A DNA stretch of 64,000 nt from Methanobacteriota archaeon (GTDB taxonomy: Archaea; Methanobacteriota; Methanobacteria; Methanobacteriales; Methanobacteriaceae), in assembly GCA_963787255.1 (NCBI GenBank), contig CAWBCJ010000029.1, positions 480,001 to 544,000 of the forward strand, given 5' to 3'. The notes under the pieces were generated by a model. That model was not told where the DNA came from. It searched no databases and was given only the letters and a program-made list of their open reading frames with translations. The translations under genes were made by a program, and so were the position numbers. Below are positions 16,166 to 24,097 of this stretch, one piece after another; within the stretch, counting starts at the first letter, position 1, and the number at the start of each line of letters is the position of its first letter.

Positions 16166-16942
16166 TTATTTTGTAATATAATTTTTAAGCGCCCCAATAC
16201 TCTCTAGTTCAACTTCAACAGTATTTCCAACGTTCATTGGCCCAACACCTGGAGGAGTTCCAGTTGCAATCACATCACCTGGCTTAAGAGTCATTATGTT
16301 TGATATAAATTCTACAAGCTCGTAAACATCAAATATCATGTTTTTAGTGTTTGAATTTTGTTTTATTTCACCATTGAGTTTTAGTGAGATTTTTTGATTC
16401 ATTGGATTCAATTCTGTTTCGATGCAGGGTCCTATGGGTGCAAAAGTGTCAAAACTTTTAGCTCGTGTCCACTGTCCGTCTTTTTGCTGTAAATCCCTTG
16501 CTGTAACGTCGTTAAAAACAGTATAACCACCTATAAATTCATTAGCGTCCTGTTCCTTTACTTTTTTTGCTTCTTTTGAAATAACGATTCCAATTTCTGC
16601 TTCATAATCCAGCTGTTTAGAAGAATTGGGATAAATAATATTATTTAAATGCCCGATCACTGCTGTTGGGGGTTTTAAAAAAATAATTGGCTCTTCTGGA
16701 ATGTCCATATTAAGTTCTTTCGCATGGTCTACATAATTTAATCCAACACAAACTATTTTGGATGGTAAAACTGGAGATTCTATTTTAATATCTTCAATTT
16801 TATAAACTGAATCTTTTTTGTATTTTTTAATAGATAATGAGTTAATTGCTTCTAAAGTTGAACATGAAAGCTCTGTTACTCTATTATTTTCTAATAATCC
16901 TGTTTTTTCTTTTCCATCCTTCCTAAATTGTATAATTTTCAT
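16166..16942 (-). CDS. Fumarylacetoacetate hydrolase family protein
   Basis: KIVCVGLNYVDH, LDYEAE, NDVTARDLQ, KSFDTFAPIGP, ATGTPPGVG. Confidence 0.95.
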   Translation of the reverse strand: MKIIQFRKDGKEKTGLLENNRVTELSCSTLEAINSLSIKKYKKDSVYKIEDIKIESPVLPSKIVCVGLNYVDHAKELNMDIPEEPIIFLKPPTAVIGHLNNIIYPNSSKQLDYEAEIGIVISKEAKKVKEQDANEFIGGYTVFNDVTARDLQQKDGQWTRAKSFDTFAPIGPCIETELNPMNQKISLKLNGEIKQNSNTKNMIFDVYELVEFISNIMTLKPGDVIATGTPPGVGPMNVGNTVEVELESIGALKNYITK

Positions 16943-17071
16943 AAATTCACCTAATTAATGAAATCAAGTTTATATTAGTTGGTATATAGAAAACAAAATT
17001 AATAAAATTTACATCTTTTAATTTCAAAAAGAAGGAGTGGAGAAATTTAACTATAATTAGGCTAAAAAAAT

Positions 17072-17371
17072 TTAGTAATCATAAGTTATTTTTAATAGTA
17101 TGGCAAGCGCTATAAGCTCGATAATTCCACCTATGTAAACGGGCCTACCTATTAAAGCCTCGCTGTCAACGATTAAAAAGCCGATGGTGAAAATACTTTT
17201 AATTAAAAGGAGTAAAGCAAATATTATAAGTCCTACTGTAAATCCAATCTTTATTTGCCTGTAACTTTTAGTATAAAGGTACAGTAGTCCTGTTAAAAGT
17301 CCAATATTTGCAATTTCTATAATTACTGCTGCAACTTTGATTCCAGTGTATCCGAATATTTCTACTGTCAT
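17072..17371 (-). CDS. Small 3-TM membrane protein, copy 1 (partner family of small archaeal ArsR-like HTH)
   Basis: 99 aa; 85/99 identical to 19572..19871 by hand count; ANIGLL..YxKSYRQIK.GFTVGL..F motif. Confidence 0.88.
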   Translation of the reverse strand: MTVEIFGYTGIKVAAVIIEIANIGLLTGLLYLYTKSYRQIKIGFTVGLIIFALLLLIKSIFTIGFLIVDSEALIGRPVYIGGIIELIALAILLKITYDY

Positions 17372-17458
17372 TTTAGACCCTTCATTTTATAATTCCTTAA
17401 AAAGTAAGAAAGGAAATTTTTAGTTCTTTTGAATTATCAATCATGATTGAGTTTCATT

Positions 17459-17515
17459 TTTGAAGATTTCCCGCCTAAAAAAAGATAAATGGAGGATTCC
17501 CGCCCAATCTTCAAA
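17459..17515 (-). repeat. Inverted repeat enclosing a ~30-nt motif repeated at 20819-20849
   Basis: TTTGAAGATT(17459-68)/AATCTTCAAA(17506-15); core AAAAAGATAAATGGAGGATTCCCGCCCAAT. Confidence 0.7.
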
Positions 17516-17523
17516 GTATTAAG

Positions 17524-18219
17524 TCAAGATGTGATATTATTCGTTTTTTCTTCTTTAATTTTCCCATCAAGCACGGTTATGATTTTTTCAGCCATGTTAG
17601 CCACGTATGGTTCGTGTGTTACCATTACAAGGGTTACATTCTCTTTTTTGTGGAGGTCTTTAAGAAGATTTAATATTAAATCTCCTGTTTTTGAATCTAA
17701 GGCCCCCGTTGGTTCGTCGGCTAAAATAATAGAGGGATGATTCACTAAAGCTCTCGCAATGGCTACTCGTTGTCTCTGTCCACCAGAAAGCTTGGTTGGT
17801 CTCTGGTTAATTTTATCTTCAAGCCCCACTGATTTTAAAAGTTCCAAAGCTCTTTCTTCCATTTTTTTACCTGAAATAGAAGTTTCAAGCATTGGAATCT
17901 CCACATTTTCAAGCACGCTGAGATTGGGAATCAAATTATGAAGCTGGAAAACAAATCCAATTTCACCGGACCTGAACCCACTCAAATCCTTTTTATACAT
18001 CAGATCAATGCCTGCAACGTTTATAGAACCTTCATCTCCTTTATCCAGTGCTCCAATCATGTTCAGGAGGGTTGATTTCCCAGAACCGGAAGGTCCAATT
18101 ATGGAAACAAATTCCCCTTTTTTAATTTCAAGATCGATGCCGTTTAATGCATTAATTTTGCCATTGTCGTAACTTTTTTTGAGATCCTTTATTTCAATGA
18201 TATTTTCCTTATTATTCAT
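17524..18219 (-). CDS. ABC transporter ATP-binding protein (LolD/MacB-like)
   Basis: GPSGSGKST, LSGGQRQRVAIARAL, ADEPTGALD, VTH. Confidence 0.96.
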   Translation of the reverse strand: MNNKENIIEIKDLKKSYDNGKINALNGIDLEIKKGEFVSIIGPSGSGKSTLLNMIGALDKGDEGSINVAGIDLMYKKDLSGFRSGEIGFVFQLHNLIPNLSVLENVEIPMLETSISGKKMEERALELLKSVGLEDKINQRPTKLSGGQRQRVAIARALVNHPSIILADEPTGALDSKTGDLILNLLKDLHKKENVTLVMVTHEPYVANMAEKIITVLDGKIKEEKTNNITS

Positions 18220-19354
18220 AGCGCAACGCCTCCGTTGGTGCTAGTCTGCTGGCCCTGTAGGCAGGATAAATTCCACCAATCATTCCAACAAGGAAAGCTA
18301 TTCCCAAAGCCCTGATGAAGAGTTCAAGTGAGTATGCAGGTTCAATTATACCCTCTGTTGATGGTGTAAGGGATAATAGAACTTCAACACCGACTACACC
18401 TACTACAATACCTACTACACCCGCCATTAAGGTGAGTACAATGGATTCACCAAGTATCATTCCAAGTATTCTCCTACTTCTCCAACCGACAGCTTTTAAG
18501 ACCCCAATTTCACGAGTTCTCTCATAAACTGACATTATCATGGTATTTATGACTCCTACTCCTCCAATAACTATCGCCAGGAGTGAAATAGCCCATGTAG
18601 CTGTATCTATGAAGCTCAAGCCCTGATTTATTCTTCCCATTTGATCAGCAGCAGAAGTTGTGGATAATTCATCAGGATATGCATCTTCAATTGCATTACC
18701 TACTTCAGTAGCATTTGCATTATCATTTATCTTTACAGCTATAGTACTGACTTCTTCTTCGCTATCAGTTAAATTCTGAAGTTTATTTAATGAAATGTAA
18801 GCTCCAGCGTCTGTTATGAAGTTTCCTGTTTCAAATGTTCCAGTAATTTTGAAATCCTTATTGAAAATGGTGATTGTATCTCCAACAGTTTTATTAAGGG
18901 TTTGGGCGGCTGTTTTACCTATAATTATTTCATTTGCATCTCCACTCGAGAAAACAGTTCCGTTGATACTGTCTACTCCAACGAGATTAAGCTTACTGCT
19001 ATCTATACCGCTTACGGTAAATCCACCGGGCCCAAAGCTGGAGCTCGAGCCCTCTTCCAGACGAACACTTGTTCTTAAAATACCGGCTGTATCTTTGATA
19101 CCGCTTATGTTTTTGATATCTGTTACGCGAGACTCATCAATACTTCCTGATAAAAAACCGTCTGTACCTTCTTGAATTACAGTAATTTCAGCACCTCCTG
19201 ATTTAAGAGTGCTCTCTGTGGATGCTTTAAGTCCCCCGGTAATGAGACCTAAAGCTACAATGGTAGCAATTCCAATTGCAATTCCAATAATTGCAAGTGA
19301 ACTTCTTGTTTTATTTCTAAATGGATTTTTTACGATTAATCCTAGGTAATTCAT
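18212..19354 (-). CDS. ABC transporter permease (MacB/FtsX-like)
   Basis: RNKTRSSLAIIGIAIG, large extracytoplasmic domain, NTMIMSVYERTREIGVLKAVGW, YPAYRASRLAPTEALRYE. Confidence 0.95.
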   Translation of the reverse strand: MNYLGLIVKNPFRNKTRSSLAIIGIAIGIATIVALGLITGGLKASTESTLKSGGAEITVIQEGTDGFLSGSIDESRVTDIKNISGIKDTAGILRTSVRLEEGSSSSFGPGGFTVSGIDSSKLNLVGVDSINGTVFSSGDANEIIIGKTAAQTLNKTVGDTITIFNKDFKITGTFETGNFITDAGAYISLNKLQNLTDSEEEVSTIAVKINDNANATEVGNAIEDAYPDELSTTSAADQMGRINQGLSFIDTATWAISLLAIVIGGVGVINTMIMSVYERTREIGVLKAVGWRSRRILGMILGESIVLTLMAGVVGIVVGVVGVEVLLSLTPSTEGIIEPAYSLELFIRALGIAFLVGMIGGIYPAYRASRLAPTEALRYE

Positions 19355-19410
19355 ATTATGATTACTCCTTTTTCAAATGAATTTTAATTAGCATAAGTCT
19401 TACCATTCTT

Positions 19411-19490
19411 TAATAAAGAATATTTAAGTAATTATTTCAAAATTCATTGCAAATTTGTTACAAATTACATGCAAATTGTATCCAATTACG
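19411..19490 (-). promoter_or_regulatory. Promoter of ABC operon with phased operator array
   Basis: Minus-strand TTAAATA box inside 16-mer TATTTAAGTAATTATT (19421-36); CAA(A)TT units at 19450, 19461, 19472, 19483. Confidence 0.7.
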
Positions 19491-19571
19491 GGAAAAAAGC
19501 ATTGAAAATCAAAAATATATAGATTTAATGGTCCAATTTTAAAAGAAGAATAAAAAAAGATTTAAAAGATT

Positions 19572-19871
19572 TCAGTAATCCCATGTTATCTTTAAAAGTA
19601 TAGTGAGCGCTATAAATTCGATAATTCCACCTATGTAGATGGGCCGGCCTATTAATAAATCACTGTCCACTATTAAAAAAGCGATGGTGGAAATACTTTT
19701 GATTAAAAGCATTAGAGCAAATAAAATTAATCCTACTGTAAATCCAATTTTTATCTGTCTATAACTTTTTGTATAAAGATAGAGTAGTCCAGTTAATAGT
19801 CCTATATTTGCAATTTCTATGATAATAGCTGCAATTTTAATTCCTGTGTATCCAAATAGTTCTAAGGTCAT
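19572..19871 (-). CDS. Small 3-TM membrane protein, copy 2
   Basis: 99 aa, 12 bp downstream of HTH gene 19884..20168; paralogue of 17072..17371. Confidence 0.88.
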   Translation of the reverse strand: MTLELFGYTGIKIAAIIIEIANIGLLTGLLYLYTKSYRQIKIGFTVGLILFALMLLIKSISTIAFLIVDSDLLIGRPIYIGGIIEFIALTILLKITWDY

Positions 19872-19883
19872 TTTAATCCCTAT

Positions 19884-20168
19884 TTAATTACTTTTCTTAA
19901 CCTGTTTCCATATAATTTCAAAATCATCGTAGTTTTCTTCCATGCTCTCTGAGAGAAAATACATTTTACCATATTTTTCTCCAGCGGATTTAACCACATC
20001 ACTATCTTCTAGAATCTTAATATGGTGTCTAATAGTCCTGTAATTCACATTTAACTCTTCTGCAAGCTGATGTGCATTGTAAGGCCGTTCATTTAATTTT
20101 TTAATGATTCTGGCACGATTCACGCCACCCCTTGTACCAAGGATCAGCCACCACAGCACTTTTTTCAT
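19884..20168 (-). CDS. Small ArsR-like winged-HTH regulator, copy 1
   Basis: [49 protein letters not shown]. Confidence 0.9.
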   Translation of the reverse strand: MKKVLWWLILGTRGGVNRARIIKKLNERPYNAHQLAEELNVNYRTIRHHIKILEDSDVVKSAGEKYGKMYFLSESMEENYDDFEIIWKQVKKSN

Positions 20169-20298
20169 AGGTTATCACTATCTAAATTAATAACATGATT
20201 TTAAGACTTCAAATAATTCTTTTTAATTATATTCTTAATAAGAATTGTATAATGTTATATTTAGATTTAATTTAAAAAAAATAGAAAAATAACTAAAA

Positions 20299-20670
20299 TT
20301 AATTTTTCATTGATTCAGTTTTTATAAGTGAACCTAAAACTCCTCCAACTACTCCCATGACTATTTCAAGCCCGATATAAAGAACTACGGTACTTATTAT
20401 GCTGCCCATATATTCGCCATATCCCTGGAAGTACATCATAACTACTAATAAGGCCGAAACTATTAATCCACCTATCAATCCTAACAATACTCCATTAATA
20501 GCCCCTTTTTTTATATTACTGCCCACCATGAATCCTAACGCAATCCCTGCGAGTATAAATGATGGTAAAAGTATGCTCTGACCTGAAATAATGTCTGAAA
20601 CAATGTAAAGAGTTACTGCGATGATAATTCCAATTATCAATGGTCTCCATTTAATTAATTCTTTAATCAT
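20299..20670 (-). CDS. DUF5518-like membrane protein
   Basis: IKWRPLIIG..GAING..GLIGG..GVVGGVLG pattern shared with the 42.8-44.3 kb paralogues; ATG 20670 (alternative GTG 20679). Confidence 0.8.
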   Translation of the reverse strand: MIKELIKWRPLIIGIIIAVTLYIVSDIISGQSILLPSFILAGIALGFMVGSNIKKGAINGVLLGLIGGLIVSALLVVMMYFQGYGEYMGSIISTVVLYIGLEIVMGVVGGVLGSLIKTESMKN

Positions 20671-20719
20671 GCTTTCCACGTCCTGATTTTAAATTTTTTC
20701 ATAATATAGTATAACCTCA

Positions 20720-20970
20720 AAAAAAAGAATAGGGGATTTATAGGAGGCATAAAAATCCCCAATATCATTTCAGAGGTGAAATGAATGTTATTGTATATGT
20801 ATATCTCCAAATAAGCTCAAAAAGACTAAATGGAGGTATCCCACCCAATTTGATAATTTCTCCTATCAAAAAAAGGGGGAAAGAGGATTTTTACCTCAGA
20901 TAGGAGAGAATTAAGCGACATATTAATGAATCTTGTAGAGGCCCACCCACTCTACAATTGAAGATATTTT
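20720..20970 (-). ncRNA. Hairpin-rich long leader / candidate regulatory RNA (strand inferred from promoter)
   Basis: Stems 20732-39/20753-60, 20765-72/20777-84, 20859-67/20899-907, 20933-40/20950-57; no ORF of 60 aa or more; GC-richer than the flanks. Confidence 0.5.
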
Positions 20971-21064
20971 TTTTAGTTTTTTAAGATATCACTCCAAATA
21001 ACCTCTTGATTTATTTTTAAATAGATTTTAATTTCTAACTACCCTGAATTCCATGTATTAAAGT

Positions 21065-21140
21065 TAATAAACTGTATTTAAGTAATTATTCCAGAGTTTT
21101 TCCCAAATCAATACCAATTATACCCAAATCTATACCAAGT
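21065..21140 (-). promoter_or_regulatory. Promoter homologous to 19411-19490 with phased operator array
   Basis: Identical 16-mer TATTTAAGTAATTATT at 21075-90; CAA units at 21104, 21115, 21125, 21136. Confidence 0.7.
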
Positions 21141-21378
21141 CCTAACACGGCCATAATTTATTTATAAAAACGAGAATTCTTCCTTAATACAACTATTTTG
21201 ATTGTAATTAAAGATTTTTCATAAACACATCTAAGATGATTATAAGCAATATTCATTATATTTGATCCTAAAAACCACATTTATAACTTTTATAAACTTA
21301 AAAATATATTTTAACCAATTTTAAATATTAAATTACTAAATAAAATAATTATAGATTATTTTAGCTCGAAATAATCCA

Positions 21379-21421
21379 ATTTAGGAATCTTTTGGGTTAA
21401 ATTTGGGAAAAGTTTTATATC
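21379..21421 (+). promoter_or_regulatory. Divergent promoter with three phased repeats
   Basis: ATTTAGG 21379, TTTTGGG 21390, ATTTGGG 21401 (11-bp spacing), then BRE/TATA-like AAAAGTTTTATAT. Confidence 0.62.
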
Positions 21422-21548
21422 TATTCTGGAATTTAGTTTAATACTGTAAATCAACAAAAAAAGGAAATTTCTCAAAAATCGGAGATTTTTGGAAGTTAGA
21501 AAAATGCAAAGCATTTTCTAAAATTTAAAACAATTTCAGGATGGAAAA

Positions 21549-23323
21549 ATGTCAAAAATAAGCACAAAATAAAGGAAAAATCATGGATTATAATCCTGGT
21601 TGCCATATTCATATTCTCATTTATATTGGATATGTACGTTTTAACACGTTACAATCTTTCTTATGGCCGAGACGGGCCATTTTACGACCTTCAGGTTCTA
21701 AGTATAATTCAAACAGGTTTCCCAGCCAGTAATGATCCGCCGCTTGCTTATTATTTACTTTCTCCATTTGTAATGCTTAGTGGAAACTCTTTCCTTGGTA
21801 TAAAAATTGGAATGGCGTTAATAGGATCTTTAATGGCATTTCCTGCTTATTTCCTTACTGAAATGTTTAGCAAGAAAATAGATATTGAATCTAAAGTTCC
21901 CGCGTTATTAAGTGCATTTCTCATAACAGTAAATCCATTTTATTTCAGTATGATTGGTGATTTCATGCAGAATCTTGTAGGGGCCTTCTTTTTATTACTC
22001 TTACTGTATTTTGCAGTTAAATGGTTTGAAAATACAAAGGAATGGAAAAAATATGGAATTTTAACGGTAATATTGCTTATCTGCAGCATATTCACCCACA
22101 TTTACACAGGAATACTGGCAGTAGTGTTATTTATATCATTACTGCTCTTTAACATAATTTTTAGAACCTTTAAAACAGGAAAAATGCCTGCAAGAGATTT
22201 AAAAATAGTGGGAGTAGTTGGGGTTCTAATTATTGGAGGATTGGCTGCTTTATTTGCATTATATCCAGTAATGTTTTCTAAATTCACCACAGTACTGTCC
22301 TTTGTAAATAGTTCATCTTCTGAAACTTCAAATTTAATGGGAGGGCCTAATACAAGTCCACTAATATTTTTAACAGTACCTTTCATATTAGGAATTTTAG
22401 CTACACTAAATGTACTTTATAAAGGATTAAAAGAGAAAATAGACGCTCAAAATGAAAAAATAAACAAAAAAATATTATTAGCACTGGTGTATTTGGTGAT
22501 GACTGTTGTTGTGATCGCTATTTCCACATTACCTTCAATTGATTCCCAGTATCAAGGTAGATTTATAATGCTTGCATTTGTCCCTATAGCCTTGATGGTG
22601 CCTTTAGGGCTTAAATTAATTGAAAAATGGATTTCAAATAGATATCCATCAAAAAAAGGATTGAAATTGGGAATAATCGGCATAATTGCTGTTTTATTTA
22701 TGATATCCAGTTTCTATACTGCGTCTACGACATTTTCAAGTATGGGGCCAAGTATCACCACAGATCAGTACAACGAACTTGTAAAAATTAAAGCTGATTA
22801 TTTAAATGGTAAAATAGATCCAAATGGCATAATAGTTGTAAATGACTACCATACGGGATATTGGGTCCAATATGTAACTGGAATGCATGTTGAAACAGGA
22901 AAGTACCAGTGAAATTCAGGCAAAATATCCTGATCAGACCATATATGCACTTACTTTGACAGAAAATAAACAATCAGGATTAAAAGGTAGTTTTGAATAT
23001 TCATGGAATCCATTGCTTCCCTTATTCATTTCCATTTGGAGGATTCAATATGGGATACTTCGTCAAATGGAAATCAGAATGCCTAGAATAATCCTCCTAA
23101 CCAAATTTCAAGAAATAACATGACTGCTCCGCCATCTGGTGGTTTAGGGAATAATACTCGGTTTAATAGATCAGGTTCTCACCCTCCGAATTTTGCAAAT
23201 ATGACTCAAAATAGAGGTGCTGGATCCTTACAAATGTCTGATCAAGGCTCAAATCAGTTAATAACGAATAGTGGAACACTAATTTTTAGTGCTGACAATT
23301 TAAAGATATATAAAATATCTTAA
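21549..23323 (+). CDS. Polytopic membrane protein, probable GT-C/PMT-like glycosyltransferase, with low-complexity tail (3 or more disruptions)
   Basis: ATG 21549 MSKISTK, then shift to KEKSWIIILVAIF; GRDGPFY, DPPLAYYL, FTHIYT motifs; fragments 22887..23123 and 23120..23323 continue it. Confidence 0.65.
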
Positions 23324-23345
23324 ATTGCCCTTAATTTCTTTTTGT

Positions 23346-23763
23346 CTATTCCCAGGTAATATAGAGAAGTATGGACAATGCAATCAATTGGATTACATTA
23401 ATGGAAGATAAGGGAAATTCTTGCCGTCCTATTTCAAAGCTATGGCTTCCAGGGCCTAAAATCATGCTTAATGCTAGAAATAGTGTGGATACAGCATTTT
23501 GAAGTAGGAGAAGTGAAACAAAGACTAAAAGACCCATTGTGAATTTGGATTTTAATTGTCTGTAACTTTTCAAATAAACGTAAAGTAATGCAATTAATAG
23601 AGCAAATATTTGCAATTCCAATTATAATGGCTAAAATTGTACTTATGCCTATTATATCCCATCCATTTAGGGCTGGATTCATGCCATGTGGTGGAATTGT
23701 GCTGCCATTAGGGCTTCCTGTACCTCCTGGCCCATTATTAATGATATTTAGTCCTTTTTCCAT
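23346..23763 (-). CDS. Small 3-TM membrane protein, copy 3, with Gly/Pro/Asn-rich N-terminal extension (frameshift ~23603)
   Basis: 23440..23778 frame gives NNGPGGTGSPNG..IIIGIANI; 23346..23621 frame gives LLIALLYVYLKSYRQLKSKFTMGLLVF..QLIALSILLYITWE; start 23763 or 23778. Confidence 0.8.
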
Positions 23764-23815
23764 AAATTTTTGTATCATTTTTTCCCTCTAATTCTTGAAC
23801 TAATTTAATGGTTAT

Positions 23816-24097
23816 TTACTTTTTCCCAATTTGTTTCCAAATTTCTAGAAATGTATCGTAATTTTCTTCCATGGCCGGCGATAAGAAGTACATTTTACCA
23901 TATTTCTCTCCGCCTGATTTAACTACGTTATTTTGTTCTAAAACTTTAATATGGTGTCTTATAGTCTTATAATCTAAATTCAGCTCTTCTGAAAGTTGAT
24001 GTGCATTATATGGTCTATCATTTAGCATTTTGATTATTTTTGCACGGTTTAATCCGCCCTTCATACCGGCAATTAACCACCACAACAACTTTTTCAT
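23816..24097 (-). CDS. Small ArsR-like winged-HTH regulator, copy 2
   Basis: 93 aa, about 68/93 identical to 19884..20168 by hand count. Confidence 0.9.

Follow-up and report, generated by a model that had tools for sequence, protein, structure and literature searches.

A conserved structured RNA family of Methanobacterium: probable regulatory leaders or small RNAs that are coupled to a promoter and serve an envelope/efflux module

A stretch of 64,000 nucleotides from an archaeon of the family Methanobacteriaceae (assembly GCA_963787255.1, contig CAWBCJ010000029.1, positions 480,001 to 544,000; hereafter the window, whose numbering is used for all its features) contains a spacer of 946 nt (20680-21625) between a minus-strand DUF5518 gene and a plus-strand gene for a PMT_2/GT39-like membrane glycosyltransferase. 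The question raised by this locus is whether the spacer encodes a functional RNA and, if so, from which strand and with which role. A preliminary description made from the letters of the sequence had pointed out that no long open reading frame (ORF) is present there, and had proposed a leader of serial hairpins at 20720-21055, displaying CCUC/CCUCC or GAGG loops, that could act as a small RNA (sRNA) blocking ribosome-binding sites, as a protein sponge or as an attenuating leader. The longest ORFs of the spacer do have only 47 and 40 aa. As judged from comparison with related genomes, a core element of ~165 nt at 20831-20998 belongs to a genuine family of conserved, structured RNAs that is absent from the databases searched and limited to Methanobacterium and near relatives. 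Its members are probably regulatory leaders or small RNAs, coupled to a promoter, that serve an envelope/efflux module. The interpretation that we prefer, with about even confidence, is that the element would be one copy of a new family of minus-strand 5' leaders of this module, with riboswitch- or attenuator-like action.

A covarying RNA core and its distribution

A DNA search of 41 related genomes revealed two sub-regions of the spacer (~20831-20995 and ~20991-21133) at 70-80% identity, with several copies per genome. A first covariance model (R1), built on six near-identical copies, produced 27 matches in 16 of the 23 Methanobacterium genomes, with 1-3 per genome, and a second model (R2) added one further genome of the genus (G004) and 4 of the 26 genomes of a sister genus, with no match in the 15 genomes from the other three sampled families of the class. 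One copy is carried by the cultured Methanobacterium oryzae DSM 11106, and three contigs were matched in a pattern scan of metagenomes, too small a number to decide the transcribed strand. Elsewhere in the window's own genome, the search for repeats gave only short, chance-level matches.

The core, described here from left to right and with its parts taken as features of the minus strand, consists of three helices and the blocks that flank them. The leftmost block (20831-20847; TGGAGGTATCCCACCCA on the plus strand, UGGGUGGGAUACCUCCA on the minus strand, where it is the 3' block) holds the second GGGUGGG motif and an end that is similar to an anti-Shine-Dalgarno (anti-SD) sequence, as it resembles the 3' end of the 16S rRNA of this genome, GGAUCACCUCCU. 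Helix P2 (20859-20907) is a perfect inverted repeat, TCTCCTATC/GATAGGAGA at 20859-67/20899-907, and encloses an A7/U7 run (20868-74), a GGGGG tract (20875-79) and the small hairpin P2a (GAGG at 20883-86 with CCTC at 20894-97). It is followed by block X (20911-20921; TTAAGCGACAT on the plus and AUGUCGCUUAA on the minus strand), the most conserved of the unpaired blocks, with invariant columns. Helix P3 (20933-20957), again a perfect inverted repeat, TTGTAGAG/CTCTACAA at 20933-40/20950-57, has a conserved loop that reads GCCCACCCA on the plus and UGGGUGGGC on the minus strand. Then comes a linker (20960-20987) that is A-rich on the minus strand and reads T8 (20967-74) and T6 (20977-82) on the plus strand, runs that would signal termination in archaea if that strand were transcribed; this T-run is conserved in Methanobacterium (genus g1) and weak or missing in the sister-genus copies. 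Block Z (20988-20998; GATATCACTCC on the plus strand, and GGAGUGAUAUC, which is Shine-Dalgarno (SD)-like, on the minus strand) closes the core, and is nearly invariant across subfamilies and genera in the alignments. Directly past the core on the minus strand there is a U5 run (20819-20823), at whose position relatives have a small A/U hairpin and a U-run. Runs of at least five U are also found inside the window's core on both strands. The features conserved throughout the family are the GGGUGGG/CCCACCC loops, AUGUCGCUUAA, GGAGUGAUAUC and three covarying helices, and the fixed blocks between the stems are TGGAGGT-nn-CCCRCCC, AAAGGGG, TTAAGCGACAT, the loop GCCCRCC and GATATCAC. Weak matches of the model in two further genera (L062, L063), which lack the P2 domain or the C-rich loops, were considered doubtful.

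The pairing of the helices was followed over 30 aligned matches, in an alignment fitted on the plus strand. As many as 93.9% of the cells were paired and 15 of the 23 pairs had changed on both sides, while slid-partner controls gave 35-49% pairing. None of 500 shuffles matched the observed values for percent paired, for pairs and cells changed on both sides or for covariation score, and 12 of 500 did so for the number of further pair types. Changes on both sides affect 7 of 10 pairs in P2, 3 of 5 in P2a and 5 of 8 in P3, with 96% of cells paired in the latter. Compensatory changes in the stems replace TCTCCTATC/GATAGGAGA by TCTTCTATG/CATAGAAGA, GTAGAG/CTCTAC by GCAGG/CCTGC, and GAGG/CCTC by GAGGC/GCCTC or GGTT/AACC. 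Copies fall into two subfamilies, of which the first is the type found in the window and the second has a different 5' domain (TTAAATGAT instead of TTAAGCGAC); the block 20831-20847 differs in subfamily 2, and its GGAGG is missing in the sister genus. In the larger genomes a subfamily-2 copy lies ~5 kb from a subfamily-1 copy. As a separate observation, in two large genomes the subfamily-2 copy (L051, 1501-1928; L052, 1175-1632) is split by an insertion of ~190-210 nt in P3.

Compensatory changes at 15 of 23 pairs that keep three helices across subfamilies of low identity indicate selection on RNA pairing, and not on DNA bound by proteins. This bears on the view that no functional RNA exists here, and that the conserved region is palindromic DNA made of regulator sites, bidirectional terminators and remnants of duplicated gene starts. 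The abundance in the region of bidirectional hairpins with T/A-runs, a loose likeness by eye of block Z and its A-rich stretch to the SD and start region of DUF5518, and the restriction of the element to one gene neighbourhood would all fit such a view, but it is the stems that vary, and the loops and junctions that are conserved, and we regard it as very improbable. A coding role was also discarded: the two ORFs that overlap the core, one of 31 aa on the minus strand that starts at the conserved ATGTCGCTTAA and one of 40 aa on the plus strand, do not keep their frame, since indels of 1, 2, 4 and 10 nt separate the copies of relatives within these ORFs, which are the only ones there.

Regarding known families, the 4227 families of Rfam 15 gave no match at the gathering threshold over the whole window, the hits within 20500-21800 were at chance level (E-values of 1.6-5.8 and bit scores far under gathering), and on the element itself no family matched either at gathering or at E ≤ 10, in the window or in four homologous loci. 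No paper describing the RNA was found in a literature search.

The hairpins that had originally drawn attention to the spacer are partly a different matter. Hairpin 1 (GGGGATTT/AAATCCCC, 20732-39/20753-60) and hairpin 2 (TCATTTCA/TGAAATGA, 20765-72/20777-84, spanning 20765-20784) show the loops GCCUCCU and CCUC, respectively, on the minus strand, and loops with AGGAGGC and GAGG on the plus strand. Together with a U8 run (20726 to 20719), hairpin 1 forms a terminator- or attenuator-like element on the minus strand (20719-20760), ~50 nt before the DUF5518 start. Five perfect 8-bp hairpins were observed in the region against 0.81 ± 1.16 in 500 dinucleotide shuffles, of which 8 reached at least five. 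Five GAGG sites were found on the plus strand of 20720-21055 (20744, 20773, 20833, 20883 and 20938), against 1.41 ± 1.11 in the shuffles, 3 of 500 reaching five; this corresponds to 14.9 sites per kb, compared with 1.6 per kb in the whole window. Thus, of the five stems of the preliminary description, four are perfect inverted repeats of 8-9 nt in the places given, and the fifth, a "shared 30-nt motif", is no stem; GAGG is enriched as it had claimed, with five sites instead of at least six; and the hairpins exceed chance, although the conserved part is narrower (20831-20998) than the leader proposed. Single-sequence folding was only modestly better than that of shuffles (z = -1.49 for the minus and -2.16 for the plus strand); the strong evidence for structure comes from the comparative data.

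The loops themselves have a limited distribution. Hairpin 1, the U-run and the GAGG that follows it are kept in five of the eight Methanobacterium loci viewed (the window and L010-L013), where the GCCUCCU loop is also maintained, and they were not found in L014, L044 and L060 or in the two sister-genus loci viewed; hairpin 2 is present in 3 of 10 loci (the window, L010 and L012), without covariation. From these alignments, the CCUC/GAGG loops, previously taken as the key feature, are a trait of close relatives only and show no covariation. A repeat TATC(AC)TCCAAATAA(G/C)CTC, read by eye at ~20804-20820 and ~20990-21008, is, along with the promoter motif described below, what best corresponds to the "shared 30-nt motif".

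The promoter and the transcribed strand

To the right of the core lies a conserved archaeal promoter, element B, on the minus strand (21054-21140). Its TATA box, CTTAAATA, runs from 21082 to 21075; ~24 nt further downstream, near 21054, there is an initiator C-A/G-TG, and the region upstream of the TATA box carries two direct repeats of 21 nt (21097-21138) that are probable regulator sites. The promoter-like site noticed earlier at 21075-90 is thus real and conserved. An alignment of 23 copies showed an invariant ATTTAAGTA(A/T)T, with a CATG/CACG block ~20 nt to its left and the two direct repeats to its right. This order of repeats, transcription factor B recognition element and TATA box, and initiator at ~24 nt is the canonical layout of archaeal promoters. 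RNA and promoter occur together in the window, in most copies of subfamily 1 and in the sister genus, and in both genera the promoter is on the right-hand side of the RNA. Its motif, which is also the best match to the supposed 30-nt stem, appears again at 19410-19439, 65-80 nt upstream of the start of the minus-strand MacB gene (19354). In six loci that lack the RNA, the promoter is followed within ~170 nt by a minus-strand zinc-ribbon gene, and the genes on the other side are convergent. This context, namely the MacB site and the six zinc-ribbon loci with convergent genes on their other side, argues that the promoter fires on the minus strand.

These promoters (window 19410-19483 and 21054-21140; L015-L018, L020 and L026) share a core ATTTAAGTAATTATT and have two kinds of upstream repeat, CCCAAATC..TACCAA before the RNA/DUF5518 unit and the zinc-ribbon gene, and TTGCAAAT..TTACAAAT before MacB-ABC, which suggests that paralogous ArsR-type regulators use distinct operators.

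We consider it fairly likely, from this and the following sequence data, that the minus strand is the one transcribed. Promoter B points at the element in two genera, and the orientation of the element with respect to DUF5518 is fixed. In addition, a helix between blocks Z and X, which of all unpaired blocks are the most conserved, is possible on the minus strand only. In subfamily 1, GGAGUGAUAU pairs with AUGUCGCU at 9 of 9 positions on the minus strand, three of them G.U, versus 6 of 9 on the plus strand, and the subfamily-2 substitutions turn G.U into A-U on the minus strand. Over 19 distinct patterns, the pairs add up to 125 of 171 on the minus versus 91 of 171 on the plus strand, and the mean duplex energy is -6.7 versus -2.4 kcal/mol, with the minus strand better in 30 of 31 cases. 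The small tandem units that adjoin the RNA at some loci (see below) also favour the minus strand, since they close with GGGGUU/AACCUC, which gives G.U on the minus and A.C on the plus strand, so that, in our own reading, 7 of 9 pair on the minus strand versus 2 of 9 on the plus strand.

The alternative is an independent plus-strand small RNA of ~150 nt, running from 20831 to the T-run at 20967-82 and divergent from DUF5518, with C-rich loops (CCCACCC twice), an SD-like GGAGGU at its 5' end and an end at P3 followed by T8/T6; it may act in trans or as the antisense partner of the minus leader made from promoter B. Several results speak for it, and at the same time weigh against transcription of the minus strand. 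Wobbles in the covarying helices P2, P2a and P3 include 24 G.U versus 16 A.C when read on the plus strand, with an interior U.G in P2 of eight subfamily-2 copies; in 20 of 25 copies the plus strand gives the more stable consensus fold (mean of -19.8 versus -17.7 kcal/mol); and, as said, the single-sequence z is better on that strand. The lean in wobbles and stability comes from the alignment fitted on the plus strand, on which the paired cells are 93.9% versus 92.6% on the minus strand. RNAalifold on a MAFFT alignment gave nearly equal energies for the two strands (-20.5 versus -19.2). Furthermore, P3 with its T8 and T6 resembles the terminator of a plus-strand RNA and is kept throughout genus g1, a U7 run inside P2 of the window copy (20874 to 20868 on the minus strand) could itself terminate a minus transcript, and neither the Z-X helix nor the outer SD/anti-SD pairing has double compensatory changes, both being weak in L039 and L043.

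By contrast, a plus-strand RNA would have no conserved promoter before it: on that strand no TATA box is conserved at a constant spacing ahead of the element and, in many copies, a bidirectional terminator hairpin abuts its 5' end. Such an RNA would also run head-on into promoter B, located 60-190 nt away in two genera. Block Z (GATATCAC) lies beyond the plus-strand T-run and is conserved across genera nonetheless, whereas the T-run is missing in L061 and reduced to T4 in L059 and L068; and the Z-X helix cannot form on this strand. The absence of a conserved plus-side TATA box, the position of block Z and the weak or missing T-run of the sister genus are further reasons to favour the minus strand, and we consider a plus-strand RNA doubtful.

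Gene context and a possible mode of action

The minus-strand module that follows the element in the window comprises, in this order, DUF5518, an ArsR-type helix-turn-helix (HTH) gene, a 99-aa ORF, and a MacB/FtsX and ATP-binding cassette (ABC) ATPase pair. DUF5518 (20299-20670), identified with Pfam, is the first gene and encodes a small membrane protein whose conserved start, MIKELIKW, lies at the ATG at 20670, its N-terminus being kept in relatives; the ArsR-type gene (19884-20168) and the 99-aa ORF (19572-19871) lie downstream. A literature search for DUF5518 by name found no paper.

Copies of the RNA occur in three arrangements, and the element stays within one gene neighbourhood. In the first, that of the window, promoter, RNA and DUF5518-ArsR-99aa are on one strand. 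In the second, promoter and RNA are directed towards the glycosyltransferase gene from its 3' side, and 1-3 small tandem units, each ending in A-run, hairpin and U-run, come after the RNA. In the third, a subfamily-2 copy sits between the stop of an ABC ATPase gene and an ArsR/99-aa pair. A protein-based scan with one genome per species gave 28 DUF5518 loci, of which 7 have the RNA (3 of the 7 in the sister genus); its orientation is constant, and it precedes the start codon by 69-238 nt. The loci without the RNA also lack a TATA box of the B type. Other copies face a convergent gene or are 380-1100 nt away from the next gene. Taken together, the covariation, the minus-strand promoter upstream and DUF5518 downstream in two genera uphold the earlier suggestion of a regulatory-type structured RNA linked to the module, and an attenuating leader on the strand read from the promoter, one of the roles then listed, is also the reading that we prefer, given promoter B and the position of DUF5518 in two genera.

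Several observations on this neighbourhood are added here in their own right. The tandem units, of ~55 nt, consist of GGAGGTTGAAG, a hairpin, GAAACCYCAAAAA, a small hairpin and TTTTT; 1-3 of them adjoin the RNA (L056, 10270-10400; also L011, L027, L028, L037, L045 and L051), and they resemble serial bidirectional terminators to which a stem of the SD/anti-SD type is joined. An upstream ORF of 11 codons (MKKFKIRTWKA; 20667-20702, minus strand), with its stop overlapping the DUF5518 start codon (AUGA), is not kept in the relatives viewed. In L014 (genome G001) the frame of the DUF5518 homologue appears broken near the conserved N-terminus, and hairpin 1 is degenerate. On the other side of the spacer, the GT39/PMT_2-like gene (21626-23323, plus strand) appears split into an ORF of 428 aa and those at 22887-23123 and 23120-23323; it seems to be interrupted by frameshifts, because all three match one 604-aa protein of relatives. 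Finally, the region 16166-24097 holds three paralogous genes for small proteins of 99, 99 and 91 aa (17072-17371, 19572-19871 and 23346-23621), without a match to a Pfam family, and two of the three pair with paralogous ArsR-type HTH genes (19884-20168 and 23816-24097).

According to the preferred minus-strand leader, transcription would begin near 21054 and produce a leader of ~385 nt. The transcript would contain, from its start, the SD-like GGAGUGAUAUC, the A-rich linker, P3 with loop UGGGUGGGC, AUGUCGCUUAA, P2 and P2a, then UGGGUGGG, ACCUCCA, U5, hairpin 2 (loop CCUC), hairpin 1 (loop GCCUCCU), U8, GAGG and, after ~45 nt, the AUG of DUF5518. Having in mind that the 16S rRNA of this genome ends in GGAUCACCUCCU, the element has two blocks able to pair with each other, one at the 5' side that is SD-like and one at the 3' side that is anti-SD-like. 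The folded core would be the sensor of a ligand or a protein, and the 5' GGAGUGAUAUC would pair either with AUGUCGCU, closing P3, or with the anti-SD-like UCACCUCC/ACCUCC end at the 3' side. The choice between these pairings would set whether the polymerase stops at the U-runs (U5, or hairpin 1 with U8) or reads into DUF5518-ArsR-99aa. U-tracts are described as the archaeal termination signal in PMC8716108. An attenuating sensor would require two exclusive pairings ahead of U-tract terminators, as block Z could form here.

Copies that face the 3' end of a convergent gene would behave differently, as the 1-3 hairpin-plus-U-run terminators that follow them may release a discrete small RNA of ~250-320 nt that may act in trans; such a stand-alone RNA is suggested at these loci because the promoter-plus-RNA unit precedes terminators there, and no gene. 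A more specific proposal, which we put forward tentatively and hold to be possible, is that the family would be a new archaeal class of riboswitch-like sensors native to Methanobacterium, with the duplex that mimics SD/anti-SD pairing as its switch helix, and that it would control a cell-envelope/efflux module by transcription attenuation and, in some loci, serve as a terminated small RNA as well.

Part of the distribution weighs against a leader of this kind. The sister-genus copies lack a terminator-like element before the gene, and hairpin 1, the U-run and GAGG are present in 5 of 8 Methanobacterium loci and not in the sister genus, so the attenuator part may be lineage-specific. Moreover, a pure cis-leader role is not the whole story, because the RNA is found in 7 of 28 DUF5518 loci and many copies have no downstream gene on the minus strand. 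Other pairings were tried and rejected. The outer helix between the SD-like 5' and anti-SD-like 3' blocks can form 4-7 bp in most subfamily-1 copies, with no compensatory change and no support in the sister genus or subfamily 2. A pseudoknot between GGGGG and CCCACCC shows no covariation, and L054, L055 and the sister genus have kept the C-rich loops but not the GGGG. A G-quadruplex from the four GGG tracts of the minus strand is not universal, as one motif is missing in subfamily 2, and the pairing of the hairpin-1 loop with an arm of P2 is lost when P2 changes.

The minus-strand transcript could instead act in trans, as the preliminary description had also proposed, with its anti-SD-like ACCUCCA and its CCUCC/CCUC loops pairing with the ribosome-binding sites GGAGGUGA/GGAGUGA and blocking translation. 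The 3' end of the genome's own 16S rRNA, GGAUCACCUCCU, and the UCACCUCCA of the copies in relatives, which has 8 nt in common with it, are consistent with this role, as are the maintenance of GCCUCCU loops in the five g1 loci and the fact that copies without a downstream gene end in terminators, like a discrete sRNA. But neither subfamily 2 nor the sister genus conserves the anti-SD-like end, only close relatives have the hairpins with CCUCC loops, and, in our own reading, the predicted fold does not expose the ACCUCC end but pairs it with block Z. An anti-SD mimic would also hit most mRNAs, which argues against a specific role in blocking ribosome-binding sites, and we find this alternative improbable.

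Comparison with known regulatory RNAs

Methanobacteriaceae are important in digesters, soils and guts. To our knowledge, few cis-regulatory or structured regulatory RNAs have been described in Archaea, and none in this family. If the element were a riboswitch-like sensor, it would add a new class of regulatory RNA to the few known from methanogens; it could also exemplify the regulatory use of termination by archaeal RNA polymerase at U-tracts, and could give a first functional handle on the DUF5518 family. The element is directly testable because it combines clear covariation, a defined promoter with probable operator repeats, gene partners and cultured hosts.

Three kinds of known RNA differ from it. 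Read on the plus strand, hairpins 1 and 2 are serial hairpins that show GGA-containing loops, as in the CsrB/RsmZ sponges invoked in the preliminary description. However, there are only two such loops, in 5 and 3 of the 10 loci viewed and thus not family-wide, and the loops of the core are C-rich on the plus strand (CCCACCC) and G-rich without GGA on the minus strand. A search for the partner protein CsrA (PF02599) gave no match in the window's own genome, which is 95% complete, while controls in three bacteria scored. With the partner gene not found and the many conserved GGA loops of these sponges missing, the comparison fails and we consider a sponge of this type unlikely. C-rich sRNAs that block ribosome-binding sites, such as the staphylococcal RsaE, are similar in that the CCUCC/ACCUCC of the element is the complement of the SD consensus used locally and looks like the 3' end of the 16S rRNA; they differ in that the motifs of the element are not conserved in the family and are predicted to be partly paired, and in that the host is an archaeon. 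An archaeal C/D box sRNA was discarded, as no RTGATGA was present on either strand of 20715-21060.

By analogy, the element appears to work most like a riboswitch or a leader-type cis-regulator, and it belongs to no described family. Differences from riboswitches and other 5' leaders with terminator platforms, of which the fluoride riboswitch of bacteria and archaea is an example, are the lack of an Rfam match, the many copies without a downstream gene, and a set of associated genes (DUF5518, ArsR, MacB-ABC and the GT39-like transferase) that gives no clue to a metabolite. The likeness lies in a compact core of several helices with covarying stems and invariant nucleotides in junctions and loops, in a position that, at some loci, separates a promoter from the gene heading an operon, in the candidate hairpin-plus-U-run elements before the gene, and in the exclusive pairings predicted for one conserved block. 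SreA and SreB of Listeria, terminated riboswitches that also act in trans, offer a parallel, by pure analogy, for a promoter-plus-RNA unit that would occur both as a leader and as a stand-alone RNA ended by terminators.

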